From IMG/VR virus record IMGVR_UViG_2529293039_000011: a DNA stretch of 41,625 nt. One strand, 5' to 3'. Positions 6,934-18,876 of this stretch are shown here, one piece after another; the first letter of the stretch is position 1; each line of letters opens with the position of its first letter. This DNA is from a virus (Duplodnaviria; Heunggongvirae; Uroviricota; Caudoviricetes). Position numbers and translations under genes: made by a program. The notes beneath the pieces were generated by a model, which ran no database searches, had not been told where the DNA came from, and was given only the letters and a program-made list of their open reading frames with translations.

Positions 6934-7032
6934 AATTCACCTCAGAATGGACACGGCCCAAGGAAATAACGCTGATTTAATACTTCGACTCGGGACAAAT
7001 TAAGGCATACCCGCATTCCTTCGCGGTCGCCA

Positions 7033-7191
7033 TTATGGCGATACCAGAGAGCTTTCTGCGTGTACATGCGTCTCTGTAACTTGCTCTCCTTTACTGTGGT
7101 TGCAAGTGACATGAATATCTCCTTCGTTACCGATTAATTCTTTCATCTGACGAATGAATTCTTCGTCTGAGCAGTTATCTGTAAAACTCAT
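7033..7191 (-). CDS. Small hypothetical protein (52 aa) in the gam position, coupled to kil
   Basis: ATG overlaps kil stop (ATGA); translates MSFTDNCSDEEFIRQMKELIGNEGDIHVTCNHSKGEQVTETHVHAESSLVSP; an alternative overlapping 56-aa frame 6943..7112 with a GGAG site also exists. Confidence 0.35.
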   Translation of the reverse strand: MSFTDNCSDEEFIRQMKELIGNEGDIHVTCNHSKGEQVTETHVHAESSLVSP

Positions 7192-7339
7192 TTCCTGCGA
7201 TACCACGGAAGGTTGATAGCTGATTTCATCGCTTTATTTGCTTCAAGCCACATTTTGGAATCACCAATAAATCTGGCTATTACTGCTTTGTTCTGTGCAG
7301 CACGAAGCATCTGGTGATTGATGGCTATTTCATTGCGCA
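7188..7339 (-). CDS. kil: Kil-like host-killing protein (50 aa)
   Basis: Translates MRNEIAINHQMLRAAQNKAVIARFIGDSKMWLEANKAMKSAINLPWYRRK; the IARFIGDSKMWLEA block resembles lambda Kil IATFIGDEKMFREA; below track size cutoff. Confidence 0.55.
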
Positions 7340-7459
7340 TAACGCCTCCAGTTGTTTCTTTGCTGCTCTGATTAATTGTTTAACTCGGCGTGATAATTCA
7401 GATTCGTGCGGGTAGAAAGCGGACATGACGCCGCTACCCGCGAGCTGAAAGTGCATCAT
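7325..7459 (-). CDS. cIII: cIII-like protein (about 45 aa); the track ORF 7325..7534 extends further upstream
   Basis: Start chosen at ATGATG preceded by AAGGAG; MMHFQLAGSGVMSAFYPHESELSRRVKQLIRAAKK resembles lambda cIII in its AG..GV...ESxL..R pattern. Confidence 0.55.
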   Translation of the reverse strand: MMHFQLAGSGVMSAFYPHESELSRRVKQLIRAAKKQLEALCAMK

Positions 7460-7534
7460 GGGTAACTCCTTATATTTGATTGCATAACGAAAACGCCTCG
7501 AGTGAAGCGTTATTGGTATGCGGTAAAGCCGCAC

Positions 7535-7903
7535 TCAGGCGGCCTTGATAGTCATATCATCTGAATCAAATATTCCTGATGTATCGATATCGGTAATTCT
7601 TATTCCTTCACTACCATCCATTGGAGGCCATCCTTCCTGACCATTTCCATCATCCCAGTCGAACTCACAAACAACACCATATGCATTTAAGTCTTTCGAA
7701 ATTGCTATAAGCAGAGCATGTTGCGCCAGCATGATTAATACAGCATTTAATACAGAGCCGTGTTTATTGAGTCGGTATTCAGAGTCTGACCAGAAATTAT
7801 TAATCTGGTGAAGTTTTTCCTCTGTCATTACGTCATGGTCGATTTCAATTTCTATTGATGCTTTCCAGTCGTAATCAATGATGTATTTTTTGATGTTTGA
7901 CAT
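7535..7903 (-). CDS. Ea10-like early protein (122 aa)
   Basis: Protein MSNIKKYIIDYDWKASIEIEIDHDVMTEEKLHQINNFWSDSEYRLNKHGSVLNAVL... matches my recollection of lambda Ea10. Confidence 0.85.
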   Translation of the reverse strand: MSNIKKYIIDYDWKASIEIEIDHDVMTEEKLHQINNFWSDSEYRLNKHGSVLNAVLIMLAQHALLIAISKDLNAYGVVCEFDWDDGNGQEGWPPMDGSEGIRITDIDTSGIFDSDDMTIKAA

Positions 7904-7921
7904 CTATTCATATCCTCATAG

Positions 7922-7950
7922 ATAAAAAATCGCCCTCACATTAGAGGGCA
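7922..7950 (-). terminator. Candidate intrinsic terminator downstream of the 156-aa gene in the pL operon
   Basis: Minus-strand hairpin GCCCTC-TAATGT-GAGGGC followed by GATTTTTTATC. Confidence 0.4.
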
Positions 7951-8053
7951 AAGAAGATTTCCAATAATCAGAACAAGTCGGCTCCTGTTTAGTTACGAGC
8001 GACATTGCTCCGTGTATTCACTCGTTGGAATGAATACACAGTGCTTATTCGTA

Positions 8054-8524
8054 CTAATAAAACACCCAATTTTCTGTTTCTTGGTTGTGTCCAAAGTTAT
8101 ATTCAATATCTGGTGTTGATGTATCAATATTCTTCATCCCATCAACAAGAGTTGATACAACAGCCAAATCTTGTTTGATTCTCATCAAATGGTATTTCTT
8201 TCGGCGCAATAAACTTTCAATGGCAAGTTTCTTCGTCGGGAATGCAAAAGATCTTTCTGCATTTTTTGCTACTTTCTTAATTGCATATCTATTTCTCCTT
8301 TGTTTCCATTCCTGTAACCACTGATTTGGTGCTGGTTTAAAATTAACAATCCAATGCGCAGGAACCAACCATGCATAATGCTCTGTCTGATGAAAAGCTA
8401 TATATTGAAGTGCGAATATTTTGATCCCATCTTCTTCAACTGTCGCCTGGAATCTCCAGAAAACAGGCATTCCATCATGTTCAGTTTCTGATTCAGGAAA
8501 AGGTACGCTCCATGATTTTGTCAT
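8054..8524 (-). CDS. Hypothetical protein (156 aa) in the ral/sieB slot between N and ea10
   Basis: Clean ORF with GAGGTG site upstream of the ATG; soluble, basic, Trp-rich; no family recognised. Confidence 0.6.
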   Translation of the reverse strand: MTKSWSVPFPESETEHDGMPVFWRFQATVEEDGIKIFALQYIAFHQTEHYAWLVPAHWIVNFKPAPNQWLQEWKQRRNRYAIKKVAKNAERSFAFPTKKLAIESLLRRKKYHLMRIKQDLAVVSTLVDGMKNIDTSTPDIEYNFGHNQETENWVFY

Positions 8525-8582
8525 ATCTCACCTCAAATAAGTGGTTTGCTGCCTAATTTCATTTTCTGGCGACCAACACAAG

Positions 8583-8855
8583 TCATCTTGCTGTCAGTTG
8601 TTTGGATTTCCGGTAGCCTGCCGCGTAAAGAGCTACGTTCGGAAGACAAGTTGAGCCTTCATATTTTCTGGTCAACGTTGTCAGTGTTATTACTTCTGCT
8701 CTCATTGCTGGTTTGCGCTTGCATTGCAAGACCACTCGAGAGGGGGTTGGTCTGTGTAGCTTGTCGGAGCTAATCGCCTCCTGACTTTGCAGGTTTGCGC
8801 GACGAGCTCTACGACGAGAAGCTGAGGTGCCTTTAAATTCTGTTTTTCTGGACAT
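8583..8855 (-). CDS. N: N-like transcription antitermination protein (about 90 aa); the track ORF extends upstream to 8939
   Basis: Start chosen at ATG preceded by GGGAGG; N-terminal arginine-rich motif MSRKTEFKGTSASRRRARRANLQ typical of N proteins; position downstream of nutL and pL. Confidence 0.65.
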   Translation of the reverse strand: MSRKTEFKGTSASRRRARRANLQSQEAISSDKLHRPTPSRVVLQCKRKPAMRAEVITLTTLTRKYEGSTCLPNVALYAAGYRKSKQLTAR

Positions 8856-8953
8856 AGATTCCTCCCGAATAAACTTTGGTGATGCAATCTCGAAGCTCCT
8901 CCTGAGACGGTTGCTTCGGCATTGCATCCCACAGCTCATGTGGTTGGGTGATC

Positions 8954-9000
8954 TGGCTTTTCAGCCACGTAGTCGAGAGTTCGACGTTGTTTAAAGAGCC
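8954..9000 (-). promoter_or_regulatory. nutL: boxA-like GGCTCTTTAAACAACG and boxB hairpin TGGC-TGAAAA-GCCA on the leftward transcript
   Basis: Near-duplicate of nutR at 11211..11256, with a compensatory base-pair swap in the boxB stem. Confidence 0.5.
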
Positions 9001-9029
9001 TGCCAGTCTGTTCCGTTTGGCTTCCAGCG

Positions 9030-9200
9030 TCCTGCTGACGGTTAAATAGTACGATATGTACTTTATTGGGTTAATACTATTTGTTCTAAAATAGGGTGAT
9101 TTTTTATAACACTTTGTATTTAATAGTGTTGTTTTTTAGCGTGGGTGTATCGCCTCGGCGATGTAAGGAGAGATCAGAATTGCGTGGTTTAGTGAGTTGT
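9030..9200 (-). promoter_or_regulatory. OL/pL region; palindrome AGTACGATATGTACT at 9048..9062 as candidate cI operator
   Basis: Palindrome shares the TACATAT/GTAC core with the OR candidate near 10948; lies between the immunity terminator and nutL; AT-rich. Confidence 0.35.
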
Positions 9201-9202
9201 AT

Positions 9203-10135
9203 CTATTTATTTTTCAATAAATACATTTGGTTATGTGTCTTTAGGTGGGGGCGTGAGGCAAAGAAAACCCGGCGCTGAGGCCGGGGTATGCATTTATGGT
9301 TTTTTTGGTCGTGCTTTGCTAGGGCTTTATGAGTTTTCTTAATGCTGCTTCTAACTTTCTGAATTTTTTCTTGGGAAAGTTTTATGTTTTCAGGGGCTGT
9401 TCCAGTGTTAGAAATCATTACATTGCGAACAGATCTCCCTACGGTCTCAGCAGCATTCTCTAGTTGAGACTGTCCCTTCAGGTTCTGGTTTCTGATTCTT
9501 GCTTCTGTCTGTGTAATTCTGAATATATTGGCCGCGAGCTCTTCGCTTCCCATGAAGTCAAGCATCGTTCCATCTTTTTTAGTTAGGCCTTTTCGAGCTT
9601 TCAACTGTGAGAGATTCATATTGTACATCCCACGGTAGCCCGCATTTTGAAATAGACCATAGTCGACTACTCCGTGTTTATGGGCTACATGACTGAGAGT
9701 TTTCTCTCTAGATGTAATCTCGCCACGCAAATAAACTCGATTAACTGCGTCATGGTTATGATATGTAGTGTGTATTTCTGCTGCGAGCCCAGCAAAATAA
9801 GCTTGTGCATTTGCAACTTTTTGATTGCTGATGTCACCATTCATTACAATCAGATAACAAGCGAAACGAGTTAATTTAAAGTCATTTTTCGCATTTTCTG
9901 AAGGCATCTGGATGAAGTTATCGTATACAGGGATATCGAGGCTCACACATACAGATGTAGCTTTGTTAATGGCTTTCAATATCTGATCCATGCCATTATA
10001 TCCAAGCATCATCGCTAAATCAGATGCAAACCAATAGGTAACACCGTTTTCTCTAGCGAAATCATCAAATGTTAACTGTGATGTGTCATCGAAAACAGTA
10101 ATTTGCCTACTCATATCACACCCGAACTTACTCAT
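9203..10135 (-). CDS. Hypothetical protein (310 aa) in the rexAB position, with a weak Bro-N/KilA-N-like N-terminal signature
   Basis: ATG preceded by AAGGGA; motif VTYWFASDLAMMLGY resembles the Bro-N W-F-x-A-x-D-x-x-x-x-L-G-Y signature; immediately downstream of cI on the same strand. Confidence 0.6.
   Translation of the reverse strand: MSKFGCDMSRQITVFDDTSQLTFDDFARENGVTYWFASDLAMMLGYNGMDQILKAINKATSVCVSLDIPVYDNFIQMPSENAKNDFKLTRFACYLIVMNGDISNQKVANAQAYFAGLAAEIHTTYHNHDAVNRVYLRGEITSREKTLSHVAHKHGVVDYGLFQNAGYRGMYNMNLSQLKARKGLTKKDGTMLDFMGSEELAANIFRITQTEARIRNQNLKGQSQLENAAETVGRSVRNVMISNTGTAPENIKLSQEKIQKVRSSIKKTHKALAKHDQKNHKCIPRPQRRVFFASRPHLKTHNQMYLLKNK
9259..9285 (-). terminator. Candidate intrinsic terminator of the cI-side immunity transcript, embedded in the last codons of the 310-aa ORF
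   Basis: Minus-strand hairpin CCCGGC-CTCAGC-GCCGGG followed by TTTTCTTTG; T-run also on the plus side. Confidence 0.45.
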
Positions 10136-10215
10136 CGATTTTCCCTTATATTAATATAATGTGGATAGTTTGTCGCCAACTCGCTAAAGTTATTCATTAT
10201 GAGGTTTGCCATCCA

Positions 10216-10875
10216 TCACCCAAACGTCTCTTCAGGCCACTGACTAGCGATAACTTTCCCCACAACGGAACAACTCTCATTGCATGGGATCATTGGGTAT
10301 TGTGGATTTAGTGGCTGTAGAAACACCTGACCGCTATCCCTGATCAGTTTCTTGAAGGTAAATTCATCACCACCAAGTCTGGCTATGCAGAAATCGCCGG
10401 GCTCAACAGCTTGCTCTGGGTCAACCAGAATTAACATCCCGTCAGGAAAACTAGGTTTGGAACCTGTTGGGGCGGTCATTGAGTTACCTTCAACCTCAAG
10501 CCAGAATGCAGAGTCACTGGCTTTTTTGGTTGTGCTTACCAATCTCTCCGCATCGCCTTTGGTAAAGGTTCTGAGTTCTGGAGAGAACATCCCAGCCTGA
10601 ACATGAGAAAAAACAGGGTACTCATATTGTTTTTTAACTGGGGCCGATGAGTATTCGCCAACAGGTGAAAATGTCCCGTCGTGGTTGAATGATATGTTAT
10701 CAATACCAAGGTATTTAAACACCACACCAATATCACTAAGAGATGGATGACGAGATCCGCGCAACCAGTGTCCAATCCCACCCTGCGTCATACCTAGCTC
10801 TTCGGCTAACTTCTCTTGAGTTATGCCGAGCTCTTTCATTCTGGATCTAGCCAGTTCATACCATTTCATTTTCAT
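10216..10875 (-). CDS. cI: cI-type repressor with LexA-like S24 autocleavage domain (about 220 aa; the track ORF extends to 11037)
   Basis: N-terminal HTH ([28 protein letters not shown]), C-terminal S24 domain with GNSM serine and FKKL lysine; start at MKMKW by position; divergent from cro. Confidence 0.85.
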
Positions 10876-10985
10876 GTCCTTATTATTACGCTCTGTATTG
10901 CAACCATCCATGCACAATGTGTATTTTTGCTTGCATTCAAAAAGTACATATTGTATTTTTTCTTCATGGTTACTATGGAGGGCAT
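10876..10985. promoter_or_regulatory. OR / pRM / pR region between cI and cro
   Basis: Candidate operators GTACATATTGTAT and CACAATGTGTA; candidate pR is TTGCAT, 17-bp spacer, TATTTT, upstream of cro. Confidence 0.45.
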
Positions 10986-11201
10986 ATGAGCAACCTACGA
11001 AAATATCGAGAGTCACTGAATATCTCTCAAACAACACTTGCTAAGGCAGTTGGATGCACACAGGGAGCTATCGGACATTGGGAATCTGGTCGTCGCTTCC
11101 CAGACCTTAAAACATGCCGTGCTCTTGTTGCGTGTCTAAACAAGTTAGGCGCAAAAGTAAGTCTTGATGACGTGTTCCCGCCGGAGCACAAAGCCGCTTA
11201 A
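10986..11201 (+). CDS. cro: Cro-like HTH repressor (71 aa; track ORF starts earlier at 10917)
   Basis: Start at ATG preceded by [36 protein letters not shown] of XRE type; divergent to cI. Confidence 0.8.
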
Positions 11202-11210
11202 TAAGCGGAG

Positions 11211-11256
11211 CCGCTCTTTGTAACAACGGACATTCGTCCTACGTCGCTGAAAAGCG
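11211..11256 (+). promoter_or_regulatory. nutR: boxA CGCTCTTTGTAACAACG and boxB hairpin TCGC-TGAAAA-GCGA
   Basis: Directly after cro stop; paralogous to nutL with a compensatory stem change. Confidence 0.5.
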
Positions 11257-11342
11257 AGCCCCAAGATATCTGACCAACTAAGGCCATATGCGTTTCCACG
11301 CATACCTTTCAACTAACTATTCACTATTGGAAATCTTAAGAA

Positions 11343-11639
11343 ATGGAACAAACAAGTTACAGCAAACTATCACAGCGTGACGTTGATCGCGCAGAAACAG
11401 ATTTACTCATCAACCTGTCAACGCTTACCCAGCGTGGTCTGGCAAAGATGATTGGCTGTCATGAATCGAAGATAAGCAGAACGGACTGGCGGTTTATTGC
11501 TTCGGTCTTGTGTGCTTTCGGAATGGCATCAGACATCAGTCCAATTAGCAGGGCTTTTAAGTATGCGCTTGATGGAATCACAAAGAAAAAACGCCCGGCG
11601 GCAACCGAGCGTTCTGAACAAATCCAGATGGAGTTCTGA
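11343..11639 (+). CDS. cII: cII transcriptional activator (98 aa)
   Basis: C-terminal KKRPAATERSEQIQMEF matches my recollection of lambda cII. Confidence 0.88.
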   Translation: MEQTSYSKLSQRDVDRAETDLLINLSTLTQRGLAKMIGCHESKISRTDWRFIASVLCAFGMASDISPISRAFKYALDGITKKKRPAATERSEQIQMEF

Positions 11640-11671
11640 GGTCATTACTGGATCTATCAACAGGAGTCATT

Positions 11672-12570
11672 ATGACAAATACAGCAAAAATACTCAACTT
11701 CGGCAGAGGTAACTTTGCCGGACAGGAGCGTAATGTGGCAGATCTCGATGATGGTTACGCCAGACTATCAAATATGCTGCTTGAGGCTTATTCAGGCGCA
11801 GATCTGACCAAGCGACAGTTTAAAGTGCTGCTTGCCATTCTGCGTAAAACCTATGGGTGGAATAAACCAATGGACAGAATCACCGATTCTCAACTTAGCG
11901 AGATTACAAAGTTACCCGTCAAACGGTGCAATGAAGCCAAGTTAGAACTCGTCAGAATGAATATTATCAAGCAGCAAGGCGGCATGTTTGGACCAAATAA
12001 AAACATCTCAGAATGGTGTATCCCTCAAAACGAGGGAAAATCCCCTAAAACGAGGGATAAAACATCCCTCAAATTGGGGGATTGCTATCCCTCAAAACAG
12101 GGGGACACAAAAGACACTATTACAAAAGAAAAAGAAAAGATTATTCGTCCGAGAATTCTGGCGAATCCTCTGACCAGCCAGAAAACGATCTTTCTGTGGT
12201 TAAACCGGATGCTGCAATTCAGAGCGGCAGCAAGTGGGGAACAGCAGAAGACCTGACCGCCGCAGAGTGGATGTTTGACATGGTGAAGACCATCGCGCCA
12301 TCAGCCAGAAAACCGAATTTTGCTGGGTGGGCTAACGATATCCGCCTGATGCGTGAACGTGACGGACGTAACCACCGCGATATGTGTGTGCTTTTCCGCT
12401 GGGCCTGCCAGGACAACTTCTGGTCCGGTAACGTGCTGAGTCCGGCCAAACTCCGCGACAAGTGGACCCAGCTCGAAATCAACCGTAACAAGCAACAGGC
12501 AGGCGTGACAGCCAGCAAACCAAAACTCGACCTGACAAACACTGACTGGATTTACGGGGTGGATTTATGA
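11672..12570 (+). pseudogene. O: Replication initiator O, interrupted by a 1-nt frameshift inside the origin (track ORFs 11672..12256 and 12082..12570)
   Basis: N-terminal frame MTNTAKILNFGRGNFAGQERNVADLDDGYARL... is lambda O; C-terminal frame ...GVDL ends by overlapping the P start; the span is 899 nt, not a multiple of 3. Confidence 0.75.
12021..12106 (+). repeat. Lambda-type replication origin: four iterons of about 18 bp, followed by an AT-rich tract
   Basis: Tandem repeats TCCCTCAAAACGAGGGAA, TCCCCTAAAACGAGGGAT, ATCCCTCAAATTGGGGGA, ATCCCTCAAAACAGGGGGA. Confidence 0.8.
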
Positions 12571-13268
12571 AAAACATCGCCGCACAGATGGTTAACTTTG
12601 ACCGTGAGCAGATGCGTCGGATCGCCAACAACATGCCGGAACAGTACGACGAAAAGCCGCAGGTACAACAGGTAGCGCAGATCATCAACGGTGTGTTCAG
12701 CCAGTTACTGGCAACTTTCCCGGCGAGCCTGGCTAACCGTGACCAGAACGAACTGAACGAAATCCGCCGCCAGTGGGTTCTGGCTTTCCGGGAAAACGGG
12801 ATCACCACAATGGAACAGGTTAACGCAGGAATGCGCGTAGCCCGTCGGCAGAATCGACCATTTCTGCCATCACCCGGGCAGTTTGTTGCATGGTGCCGGG
12901 AAGAAGCATCCGTTATCGCCGGACTGCCAAACGTCAGCGAGCTGGTTGATATGGTTTACGAGTATTGCCGGAAGCGAGGCCTGTATCCGGATGCGGAGTC
13001 TTATCCGTGGAAATCAAACGCGCACTACTGGCTGGTTACCAACCTGTATCAGAACATGCGGGCCAATGCGCTTACTGATGCGGAATTACGCCGTAAGGCC
13101 GCAGATGAGCTTGTCCATATGACTGCGAGAATTAACCGTGGTGAGTCGATCCCTGAACCAGTAAAACAACTTCCTGTCATGGGCGGTAGACCTCTAAATC
13201 GTGCACAGGCTCTGGCGAAGATCGCAGAACTCAAAGCTAAGTTCGGACTGAAAGGAGCAAGTGTATGA
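12567..13268 (+). CDS. P: Replication protein P (DnaB helicase loader, 233 aa)
   Basis: Protein MKNIAAQMVNFDREQMRRIANNMPEQYDEKPQVQQ... matches my recollection of lambda P; ATGA overlap with O. Confidence 0.9.
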   Translation: MKNIAAQMVNFDREQMRRIANNMPEQYDEKPQVQQVAQIINGVFSQLLATFPASLANRDQNELNEIRRQWVLAFRENGITTMEQVNAGMRVARRQNRPFLPSPGQFVAWCREEASVIAGLPNVSELVDMVYEYCRKRGLYPDAESYPWKSNAHYWLVTNLYQNMRANALTDAELRRKAADELVHMTARINRGESIPEPVKQLPVMGGRPLNRAQALAKIAELKAKFGLKGASV

Positions 13269-13555
13269 CGGGCAAAGAGGCAATTATTCATTACCTGGGG
13301 ACGCATAATAGCTTCTGTGCGCCGGACGTTGCCGCGCTAACAGGCGCAACAGTAACCAGCATAAATCAGGCCGCGGCTAAAATGGCACGGGCAGGTCTTC
13401 TGGTTATCGAAGGTAAGGTCTGGCGAACGGTGTATTACCGGTTTGCTACCAAGGAAGAACGGGAAGGAAAGATGAGCACGAACCTAATTTTTAAGGAGTG
13501 TCGCCAGAGTGCCGCGATGAAACGGGTATTGGCGGTATATGGAGTTAAAAGATGA
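13265..13555 (+). CDS. ren: Ren protein (96 aa)
   Basis: Protein MTGKEAIIHYLGTHNSFCAPDVAALTGATV... matches my recollection of lambda Ren; overlaps P stop. Confidence 0.85.
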   Translation: MTGKEAIIHYLGTHNSFCAPDVAALTGATVTSINQAAAKMARAGLLVIEGKVWRTVYYRFATKEEREGKMSTNLIFKECRQSAAMKRVLAVYGVKR

Positions 13556-13580
13556 CCATCTACATCACTGAGCTAATAAC

Positions 13581-13613
13581 AGGCCTGCTGGTAATCGCAG
13601 GCCTTTTTATTTG
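13581..13613 (+). terminator. Intrinsic terminator after ren (tR2 position)
   Basis: Hairpin AGGCCTGC-TGGTAATC-GCAGGCCT followed by TTTTTATTT. Confidence 0.6.
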
Positions 13614-13627
13614 GGGGAGAGTAAATC

Positions 13628-13954
13628 GTGGCTGACTGGCAAATACCAATCATCATTCTTGCCGGAGCTTCGCTGGTTGCTGGCTTTATCCTGCTGAAGA
13701 AGCATAAAGACCGTGATCAAAAAGTCGAAGTTCTCTATGGGTATCCGGCGAACAGCACAACATGGCTGACTATTTACCACTACCGAAAATCAGGCCGTTG
13801 GGTATTCGAATGGGATGATCTGTTTGCTGAAAAGCGACCAAAGTCATGGGGAGACATCAGCGAATGCATGATGTTTGAAGAAAGAAAATCCGGCGCAACC
13901 CGAGAAGAGTTTAACGAAGCGTGGAGGCGATTAAGTGAGAGGGGGTATCAATGA
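13628..13954 (+). CDS. Hypothetical membrane-anchored protein (108 aa), GTG start
   Basis: GTG preceded by GGGGGAGAG; N-terminal hydrophobic segment IPIIILAGASLVAGFILL followed by a charged soluble domain. Confidence 0.55.
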   Translation: MADWQIPIIILAGASLVAGFILLKKHKDRDQKVEVLYGYPANSTTWLTIYHYRKSGRWVFEWDDLFAEKRPKSWGDISECMMFEERKSGATREEFNEAWRRLSERGYQ

Positions 13955-13976
13955 GCAGAATTAAGTCGAGGTAACA

Positions 13977-14423
13977 ATGAAGCAAATATACATGCTTCGC
14001 AACGAAGCAATCAGAAACAACGCCATAGACGCAATACTCTCACTTCCGATCGACGACAAGTCACCTCACGAAGTCCACATTAAAGAACCCAGGCGGAGCA
14101 ATCCTCAAAACCGCCTTATGTGGGCGTTATTGCAGGACGTATCACGTCAGGTGCTTTGGCATGGAAAGAGACTTGCGCCGGAGGACTGGAAAGATCTGTT
14201 CACTGCCCTGTGGCTTAAGACCAAAAAACTGGAGCAACGAAGTGCGCCTGGTATCGACGGTGGCGTTGTCATGCTTGGCGTGCGTACCAGCAAAATGCGA
14301 AAGGCCAGCATGACTGAGCTTATCGAAATCATGTTCTGGTTCGGCTCAGAGCGCAACGTGCGGTGGAGTGATGACTCCCGGCGAGAGTATGAATGGTCAC
14401 AACGAAAAGGTAGGGCTGCATGA
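13977..14423 (+). CDS. ninB: NinB (Orf family recombination protein, 148 aa)
   Basis: Conserved NinB blocks NPQNRLMWALLQDVSRQVLWHGKRL and RNVRWSDDSRREYEW, as recalled from lambda NinB. Confidence 0.85.
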   Translation: MKQIYMLRNEAIRNNAIDAILSLPIDDKSPHEVHIKEPRRSNPQNRLMWALLQDVSRQVLWHGKRLAPEDWKDLFTALWLKTKKLEQRSAPGIDGGVVMLGVRTSKMRKASMTELIEIMFWFGSERNVRWSDDSRREYEWSQRKGRAA

Positions 14424-18849: not shown

Positions 18850-18876
18850 GGCTGCGCATGGCGCGGCCTTTTTTTT
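18850..18876 (+). terminator. Intrinsic terminator downstream of the membrane-protein moron
   Basis: Hairpin GGCTGCGC-ATG-GCGCGGCC followed by TTTTTTTT. Confidence 0.5.

Follow-up and report, generated by a model that had tools for sequence, protein, structure and literature searches.

Which elements on the early transcripts of a lambdoid prophage would load its N protein, when that protein is not of the lambda family? The question is raised by a stretch of 41,625 nucleotides (nt) from a member of the Caudoviricetes (IMG/VR record IMGVR_UViG_2529293039_000011; the whole stretch is called the window here), for which an earlier note had described two near-identical elements, one leftward from the promoter pL and one rightward after cro, as a nutL/nutR pair made up of a boxA-like motif, a spacer and a boxB hairpin. 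Both elements were found at the places claimed (Table 1), and they are very probably the nutL and nutR of a lambdoid prophage, i.e., N-loading sites with a boxB of the GAAA/GCAA tetraloop type, a reading that draws on their sequences and on analogy with characterized phages.

Position and parts of the two probable nut sites

The stretch that separates the OL operators (about 9046-9120) from the N gene contains nutL, and nutR begins about 10 nt past the cro stop codon, ahead of cII; there is one nut site per early transcript, with terminator-like sites further downstream on both sides. In DNA letters nutL reads GGCTCTTTAAACAAC-GTCGAACTCTCGAC-TACG-TGGCTGAAAAGCCA and nutR reads CGCTCTTTGTAACAAC-GGACATTCGTCC-TACG-TCGCTGAAAAGCGA. 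The 20-nt boxB core CTACGTNGCTGAAAAGCNAG occurs, with up to two mismatches allowed, at exactly two places in the 41.6 kb, against a mean of 0.00 in 100 shuffles, and the pair also emerges, as inverted repeat I2 (8953-8972 / 11239-11258), from an unbiased search for repeats, beside the OL/OR pair I3. A covariance model (R1), built from related nut sites with both window sites in its training set, picks out these two and no other site, the next match in the window scoring 9 bits. The correct positions, the consensus-type boxA, the covarying boxB and a Pfam-confirmed N gene after nutL all bear out the nutL/nutR assignment. Phages of the mEp021 group have a third nut site (PMC11893012); such a site was rejected for the window, where the covariance model finds only two. 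An Rfam scan of positions 7000-14000 at E values up to 10 returned no nut, boxA or boxB family, only weak chance matches.

Both boxAs fit the linear (C/U)GCUCUU(U)A type, 5' of boxB (consensus boxA sequences: PMC2724277), and that of nutL is conserved in related loci. The shared form GCTCTTT(A/G)(A/T)AACAACG that had been proposed for the two matches nutR, but is one base too long for nutL, which has GCTCTTTAAACAACG. The order boxA, spacer, boxB is likewise present, but the "spacer" is itself a hairpin, with the stem GUCGA/UCGAC in nutL and GGAC/GUCC in nutR.

Folded alone, each boxB forms a 5-bp stem capped by GAAA (-7.1 kcal/mol, z -3.7, for nutL; -6.5 kcal/mol, z -2.9, for nutR). The loop is the four bases GAAA, and not the TGAAAA of the earlier note, because the flanking U and A pair with each other, in single-sequence folds and in RNAalifold consensus folding alike; it is one A shorter than the lambda loop GAAAA. 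The G-C to C-G swap between nutL and nutR, at the second pair of the stem, is real and keeps the pairing.

Covariation and coupling to the N arginine-rich motif

To place the pair in a comparative frame, 80 IMG/VR loci with nearly the same N were collected together with the nut sites of phages 933W, HK97, epsilon34 and phiSTEC1589, contigs (Cronobacter, Pantoea, metagenomes) whose N homologues are 42-82% identical, and 120 stretches matching the nutR spacer in a DNA-pattern scan. The IMG/VR protein scan yielded only close relatives, 97-100% identical; the diversity comes from the N-homologue contigs and the DNA-pattern scan, and a further scan of genome contigs gave 11 loci, mostly C-terminal matches. 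Pooled, the sample holds 59 distinct nut sequences, which were parsed manually from fixed anchors.

All pairs of boxB and of the spacer hairpin are canonical in each of the 59. From the outermost pair inwards, boxB uses U-A, G-C, C-G or A-U; C-G or G-C; G-C or A-U; C-G; and U-A, C-G or U-G. The spacer hairpin is built on four unrelated stems (GUCGA/UCGAC, GGAC/GUCC, GGUGA/UCACC and GAUUC(A/G)/UGAAUC) with freely varying loops. At the nutL position the GUCGA/UCGAC stem is kept under loops CUC, ACAC, AUC or AUGAA, the three other stems occurring in other lineages, and at nutR the stem is invariant while the loop is AUUC, AUGAA, ACGAA or AUAC (933W, HK97, epsilon34, Pantoea and Cronobacter prophages). 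The linker UACG is present in all but one, which has CACG.

RNAalifold, applied to the 16 distinct tetraloop-class sequences, returned the 5-bp, 4-nt-loop boxB with compensatory changes in four of five pairs and none broken; the spacer hairpin did not emerge from this run because its stems differ in length. In the model-derived alignment A3, which like the MAFFT alignment A2 mis-registers the pentaloop sites and the 933W-type nutL spacer and was replaced by the anchored parse and the tetraloop-only run, double changes occur in seven of nine pairs; the covariation score was 0.363 versus 0.109 in shuffles, exceeded in none of 500. The closing U-A of boxB truly pairs, because C-G replaces it in loci L102 and L147. 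A single swap within one genome, which the earlier note had taken as classic covariation evidence, is weak by itself; the compensatory boxB pairs uphold the argument, and the G-C versus C-G difference between nutL and nutR is, judged from the sequences compared, old and stable, recurring in most lineages as one of many compensatory differences. A three-way covariation, joining the base before boxA to the swapped boxB pair, was also tried: it holds in the window and fails across loci. Two IMG/VR loci of the pentaloop class (L138 and L189) have the nutR boxB UCGCU-GACAA-GGCGA, closed by U-G rather than U-A. A U-A closing pair is reported to be necessary for tight N binding in lambda, and the variant may tolerate or exploit a wobble pair.

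The open reading frame (ORF) starting at 8855 (MSRKTEFKGTSASRRRARRANLQ...) has a single Pfam match, to PF25694 "Transcriptional antitermination N peptide" (E 1e-31), and also matches PHROG 271, anti-termination protein N-like. It starts 98 nt downstream of boxB, and a GGAGG ribosome-binding site stands 5 nt upstream of its ATG. A PDB sequence search with this N gave no match, probably due to the very short N peptides in solved structures. The family takes in the proteins of P22, 21, 933W, H-19B and HK97, which have the C-terminal CLPNVALYAAGYRKSKQLTAR in common and differ in the arginine-rich motif; in the window the latter is TSASRRRARRANLQ (SRRRARRANLQ).

Across about 190 loci, motif class and loop class co-vary with no exception. 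Wherever N has RRRx(R/H)RAx(L/M/V)Q, as in at least 12 different N termini of Escherichia, Salmonella, Cronobacter and Pantoea, both nut sites have GAAA or GCAA, and the RRRE(R/L)LK.. motif of 933W and HK97, 7 amino acids (aa) longer, always goes with GACAA; one RRREARKHLQ variant pairs with GCAA at both sites. Thus the loop, which the earlier note had called unlike lambda's in keeping with a non-lambda N, does track the arginine-rich motif. The clearest case is L103 versus L102, two loci that hardly differ in their flanks or in the rest of N but do differ in the motif-coding segment and in both boxBs: nutL goes from GGCU-GAAA-AGCC to GGCC-GACAA-GGCC and nutR from CGCU-GAAA-AGCG to CGCC-GACAA-GGCG, by the same three edits. 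This concerted switch argues strongly, on comparative grounds, for recognition of the boxB loop by N and for the use of both sites by one and the same N.

Two metagenome contigs (L103 and L104) also have, near the intact N, a truncated second N-like C-terminal fragment of 41 codons (...ACLPQVAIFAAGHRNT), apparently left behind by a mosaic exchange of N alleles that end in the tails ...KSENITAR and ...NTRKEAVHITK. E. coli-type N genes and nut sites were further met in a metagenome-assembled genome labelled Segatella copri (short contigs L087 and L090, the former with both nut sites and an N of 97% identity) and on a 394-bp contig of Xanthomonas pisi (L088), most likely through binning or assembly contamination and not as real host range.

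Competing explanations, mechanism and significance

The alternative that deserves most attention, though it is unlikely, is that the functional RNA is a larger fold in which boxA (GCUCUUU) pairs with the loop and 3' strand of boxB (GAAAAGC) around the spacer hairpin; the boxB tetraloop hairpin would be just one of two competing conformers, and N would select or remodel between them. Folding of the 66-nt nutL and nutR RNAs gives this structure both as the minimum-free-energy (MFE) and as the centroid solution (-14.9 and -17.8 kcal/mol), it recurs in longer contexts, and pairing of the swapped boxB base with the first base of boxA (G in nutL, C in nutR) would be possible in the window; Neely and Friedman are said to have proposed, in 2000, alternative NUT RNA structures for H-19B. 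Its z-scores, however, are only -1.6, the pairing follows automatically from two motifs conserved for other reasons, and the base before GCUCUU varies among A, U, C and G, boxB not changing to match. Moreover, the nutL of the 933W, HK97 and epsilon34 types keeps both hairpins without a GCUCUU boxA, which makes the fold impossible in 933W and epsilon34 nutL, and NusB-NusE binding needs a single-stranded boxA (PMC3177189).

Recognition of boxB as a 3-bp stem with a UGAAAA hexaloop, in the manner of phage 21, is very unlikely. It corresponds to the first parsing of the loop, and phage 21 boxB indeed has a six-base loop, CUAACC (PMC12550061), but folding predicts a U-A pair, which is C-G in L102 and L147 (and U-G in two sequences), and the context CU-GAAA-AG is the closing-pair context of lambda and P22. 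In the N family, motifs of the phage 21 type (SRYKARRAEL) make up a branch of their own. Least credible of all is that the two sites resemble each other through recent duplication or gene conversion, their hairpins being incidental, or else terminators or RNase sites. The window by itself offers only one compensatory swap, within a single genome, and a plus-strand scan flags 8972-8985 as terminator-like; on the transcribed strand, though, no U-tract follows either hairpin. Both sites are kept in prophages of Escherichia, Salmonella, Cronobacter and Pantoea despite differing cro, cI and flanks, mosaic joints fall right at the nut site edges, and the many compensatory changes, with a loop type that co-varies with the N motif, have already largely refuted this idea, as far as comparison of sequences can.

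A nutL/nutR pair with a tetraloop boxB thus remains the preferred reading, and several points weigh against it in turn. Each boxB folds into its hairpin when taken alone, but the MFE fold of the longer nut RNA pairs boxA with the 3' half of boxB, so that the boxB hairpin is not part of the most stable structure of this RNA by itself. From the mixed alignment A3 RNAalifold predicted nothing; pentaloop and 933W-type nutL sequences were mis-registered there, which accounts both for this and for its 13% unpaired cells. A simple sigma-70 consensus scan called neither pL nor pR. Binding of N to nut and antitermination are argued from homology and co-variation, and in lambda the extruded fourth loop base is reported to matter for the NusA-dependent complex, a contact that a tetraloop would lack.

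On the preferred reading, a linear boxA would come first on each of the pL and pR transcripts, followed by the short spacer hairpin, UACG and the boxB hairpin. As in lambda, the nascent boxA would bind host NusB-NusE (PMC3177189) and the arginine-rich motif of N would bind boxB, with NusA expected to contact spacer and boxB, as homology with the lambda and H-19B systems suggests (PMC2724277; PMC8632103; PMC3526286); the spacer hairpin and UACG are probably that NusA contact, like the lambda and H-19B spacers. The conserved C-terminal part of N, together with NusA and NusG, would make RNA polymerase termination-resistant, and the modified polymerase, with the complex retained, could then read through terminators downstream, for which there is a candidate on either side (Table 1). 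A bolder and tentative proposal, which we hold to be possible but rather doubtful, is that this N/nut class recognizes a true 4-nt GNRA loop without an extruded base and that the conserved spacer hairpin with UACG serves it as an indispensable second element for protein contact. The N-NusA-RNA complex would then have a geometry other than that of the lambda and P22 paradigms, perhaps with other host-factor needs, and the natural GAAA-to-GACAA switches coupled to motif swaps would be a ready-made system for stepwise change of peptide-RNA specificity.

N/nut antitermination is textbook knowledge, so that nut sites in a lambdoid prophage are expected and the addition is modest: the pair represents one more specificity class within a well-known system, in an essentially ordinary and very common lambdoid N type. 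Its mildly interesting features are the co-switching of motif and boxB, a clean natural example of concerted change in which the N motif and both boxBs switch together, and the true GNRA tetraloop, which would exist in nature beside the pentaloop and hexaloop models of peptide-RNA recognition. More practically, the result provides a correct nut annotation for the N type of about 21% of complete E. coli genomes and of many Shiga toxin (Stx)-converting phages; no nut site is marked in AP005153 (an Stx1-converting phage) or phage 2851, two records of the window's N type. In Stx phages early antitermination feeds Q and hence toxin expression, and therefore knowing the N specificity class has some practical use.

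The immunity region and comparison with known systems

Positions 8500-11400 form a lambdoid immunity region, and Stx phages 1717, 2851, YYZ-2008 and AP005153, among others, match the early region at 96-97% identity over the aligning 67-68% of the query. The N-nutL segment is 100% identical to that of a prophage of E. coli E2348/69 and present in 1135 of 5426 complete E. coli genomes (the 21% given above). Operator-like inverted repeats AAAGTACATAT(C/T)GTA occur at 9044-9064 / 10941-10961 and at 9106-9122 / 9218-9234, a placement of OL and OR that agrees with the operators annotated at the equivalent position in AP005153. From these operators and that record's annotation pL and pR were placed, their exact hexamers being putative. 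The two intrinsic terminators of Table 1 are candidates by their stem and tail; an annotated HK97 terminator, after HK97 gp45, occupies the place equivalent to the leftward one. Another strong terminator-like site lies at 18850-18868 on the plus strand (seven of eight pairs G-C, then T8).

Table 1 Features of the early region of the window (positions count from its first letter)
Feature	Position	Strand	Description
nutL, whole	9000..8954	minus	boxA, spacer hairpin, UACG linker, boxB; covariance model R1 (site in its training set) 60.4 bits, E 2e-14
nutL boxA	8986..9000	minus	GGCUCUUUAAACAAC; rrn-type consensus GCUCUUUA plus one extra A before ACAA
nutL spacer hairpin	8972..8985	minus	GUCGA-ACUC-UCGAC; seen in centroid fold and inside MFE fold
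nutL linker UACG	8968..8971	minus	single-stranded, between spacer hairpin and boxB
nutL boxB	8954..8967	minus	UGGCU-GAAA-AGCCA; 5-bp stem, GNRA tetraloop
nutR, whole	11212..11257	plus	same layout; covariance model R1 (site in its training set) 55.4 bits, E 5e-13
nutR boxA	11212..11227	plus	CGCUCUUUGUAACAAC; conserved across loci
nutR spacer hairpin	11228..11239	plus	GGAC-AUUC-GUCC; seen in fold
nutR boxB	11244..11257	plus	UCGCU-GAAA-AGCGA; 5-bp stem, GNRA tetraloop
N leader	8856..8952	minus	between boxB and N start codon; 97 nt, long stable hairpin reaching towards GGAGG
N gene	8855..8583	minus	90 aa; Pfam PF25694
OL operator	9044..9064		paired with OR 10941-10961 (inverted repeat I3); marks pL just upstream of nutL
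Bro-N-domain ORF	10135..9203	minus	310 aa; PHROG 8036, function unknown
cI-type repressor	10875..10216	minus	LexA family
cro	10986..11201	plus	71 aa, helix-turn-helix; Pfam HTH_3, 4e-12; named cro in phage 2851
cII	11343..11639	plus	O and P next
Candidate leftward terminator, tL1-like	7930..7951	minus	intrinsic; 8-bp stem then TTTTTTAT; consensus scan; after 156-aa ORF downstream of N
Candidate rightward terminator, tR2-like	13581..13604	plus	intrinsic; 8-bp stem then TTTTATTT; consensus scan; downstream of P

The N leader folds at -39.4 kcal/mol (z -4.46; none of 200 shuffles as stable) and may have a regulatory role; its hairpin resembles the RNase III-processed N leader of lambda. The epsilon34 leader contains a similar dyad made of different bases (GAUGCGAUG...CAUCGCAUC versus GAUGCAAU...AUUGCAUC). 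The Bro-N ORF sits between cI and pL, the position of rexAB in lambda, and is followed by a GC-rich hairpin and T-run (terminator-like, 9285..9268); it resembles a moron because the closest Stx phages, which match only part of the query, are without it. Directly upstream of the nutR boxA, the cro stop codon lies within a perfect palindrome (CCGCTTAATAAGCGG, 11194-11208), which other loci share if they have this cro allele (flank ...AAGCGGAGCC or ...AAGCGGATCC) but not if their cro allele differs.

The boxBs studied structurally are the pentaloops of lambda and P22 and the hexaloop of phage 21, all of which mimic the GNRA fold (P22 and 21: PMC12550061). In the searchable literature, which leaves key subscription papers outside reach, we found no description of the present nut pair, of a natural tetraloop boxB or of an experiment on this class. 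Lambda follows the same logic, with boxA, spacer and boxB in that order on the pL and pR transcripts and N encoded after nutL, and it shares with the window a U-A closing pair and the G and A of a GNRA-like loop fold. However, its loop has five bases (GAAAA or GAAGA, the fourth extruded) versus four in the window, its spacer is short and unstructured where the window has a hairpin, its boxA is CGCUCUUA rather than of the CUUU type, and its N is of another sequence family and did not come up among the homologues found with the window N. The phage 21-type boxB combines a hexaloop with a SRYKARRAEL-type motif, neither of which occurs in the window.

The boxB of P22 (gp24 N peptide, PDB 1A4T) has the stem and closing pair GCGCU...AGCGC as in the window, the window loop is expected to adopt a GNRA fold as that of P22 does, the C-terminal 25 residues of P22 N are almost identical to those of the window N, and the P22/933W boxB CGCU-GACAA-AGCG minus the extruded C is the window boxB. 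The extruded base of GACAA, the third, is contacted by His7 and Arg11 of the peptide (PMC12550061); by alignment, these residues would correspond to Arg and Ala in the window N, whose boxB loop is without an extrudable base. P22-type nut sites in the sample (locus L089) also differ in being without the spacer hairpin and UACG context.

The layout of H-19B, 933W and HK97 is that of the window: a boxA-like element ending in ACAA(C/U), a spacer hairpin, UACG and boxB. H-19B nutR forms two hairpins, and its spacer and boxB are protected by N, NusA and NusG (PMC3526286); the 933W nut sites are annotated in GenBank at homologous places. With HK97, for which the earlier note had called for an alignment, and with 933W, the window shares an unchanged nutR spacer (GGACAUUCGUCC), linker and boxB stem (UCGCU...AGCGA), and the 127-aa N and the window N are homologous over their whole length (about 41% identical, same Pfam family). 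In contrast, the boxB loop in all three phages is GACAA (5 nt) versus GAAA (4 nt), and the 933W/HK97 N motif includes the 7-aa longer segment RRRERLKAKALANG, which the window N does not have; nor does 933W/HK97 nutL have the canonical GCUCUU boxA, which is of the consensus type at both window sites.

A further counterpart is epsilon34 (NC_011976), in which the annotated "putative NutR - boxB" and the nutR spacer are identical to those of the window. Its nutL boxB, CGGCU-GAAA-AGCCG, differs in the outermost pair (C-G versus U-A) and stands behind a GAUUCA/UGAAUC spacer stem without a GCUCUU boxA. Gene 43 of epsilon34 encodes an N of 120 aa with a 933W-like middle region and the motif GRRRERRAALQ, of the same class as that of the window, and the epsilon34 authors predicted a "novel BoxB specificity" because its N terminus was divergent (PMC2629481).

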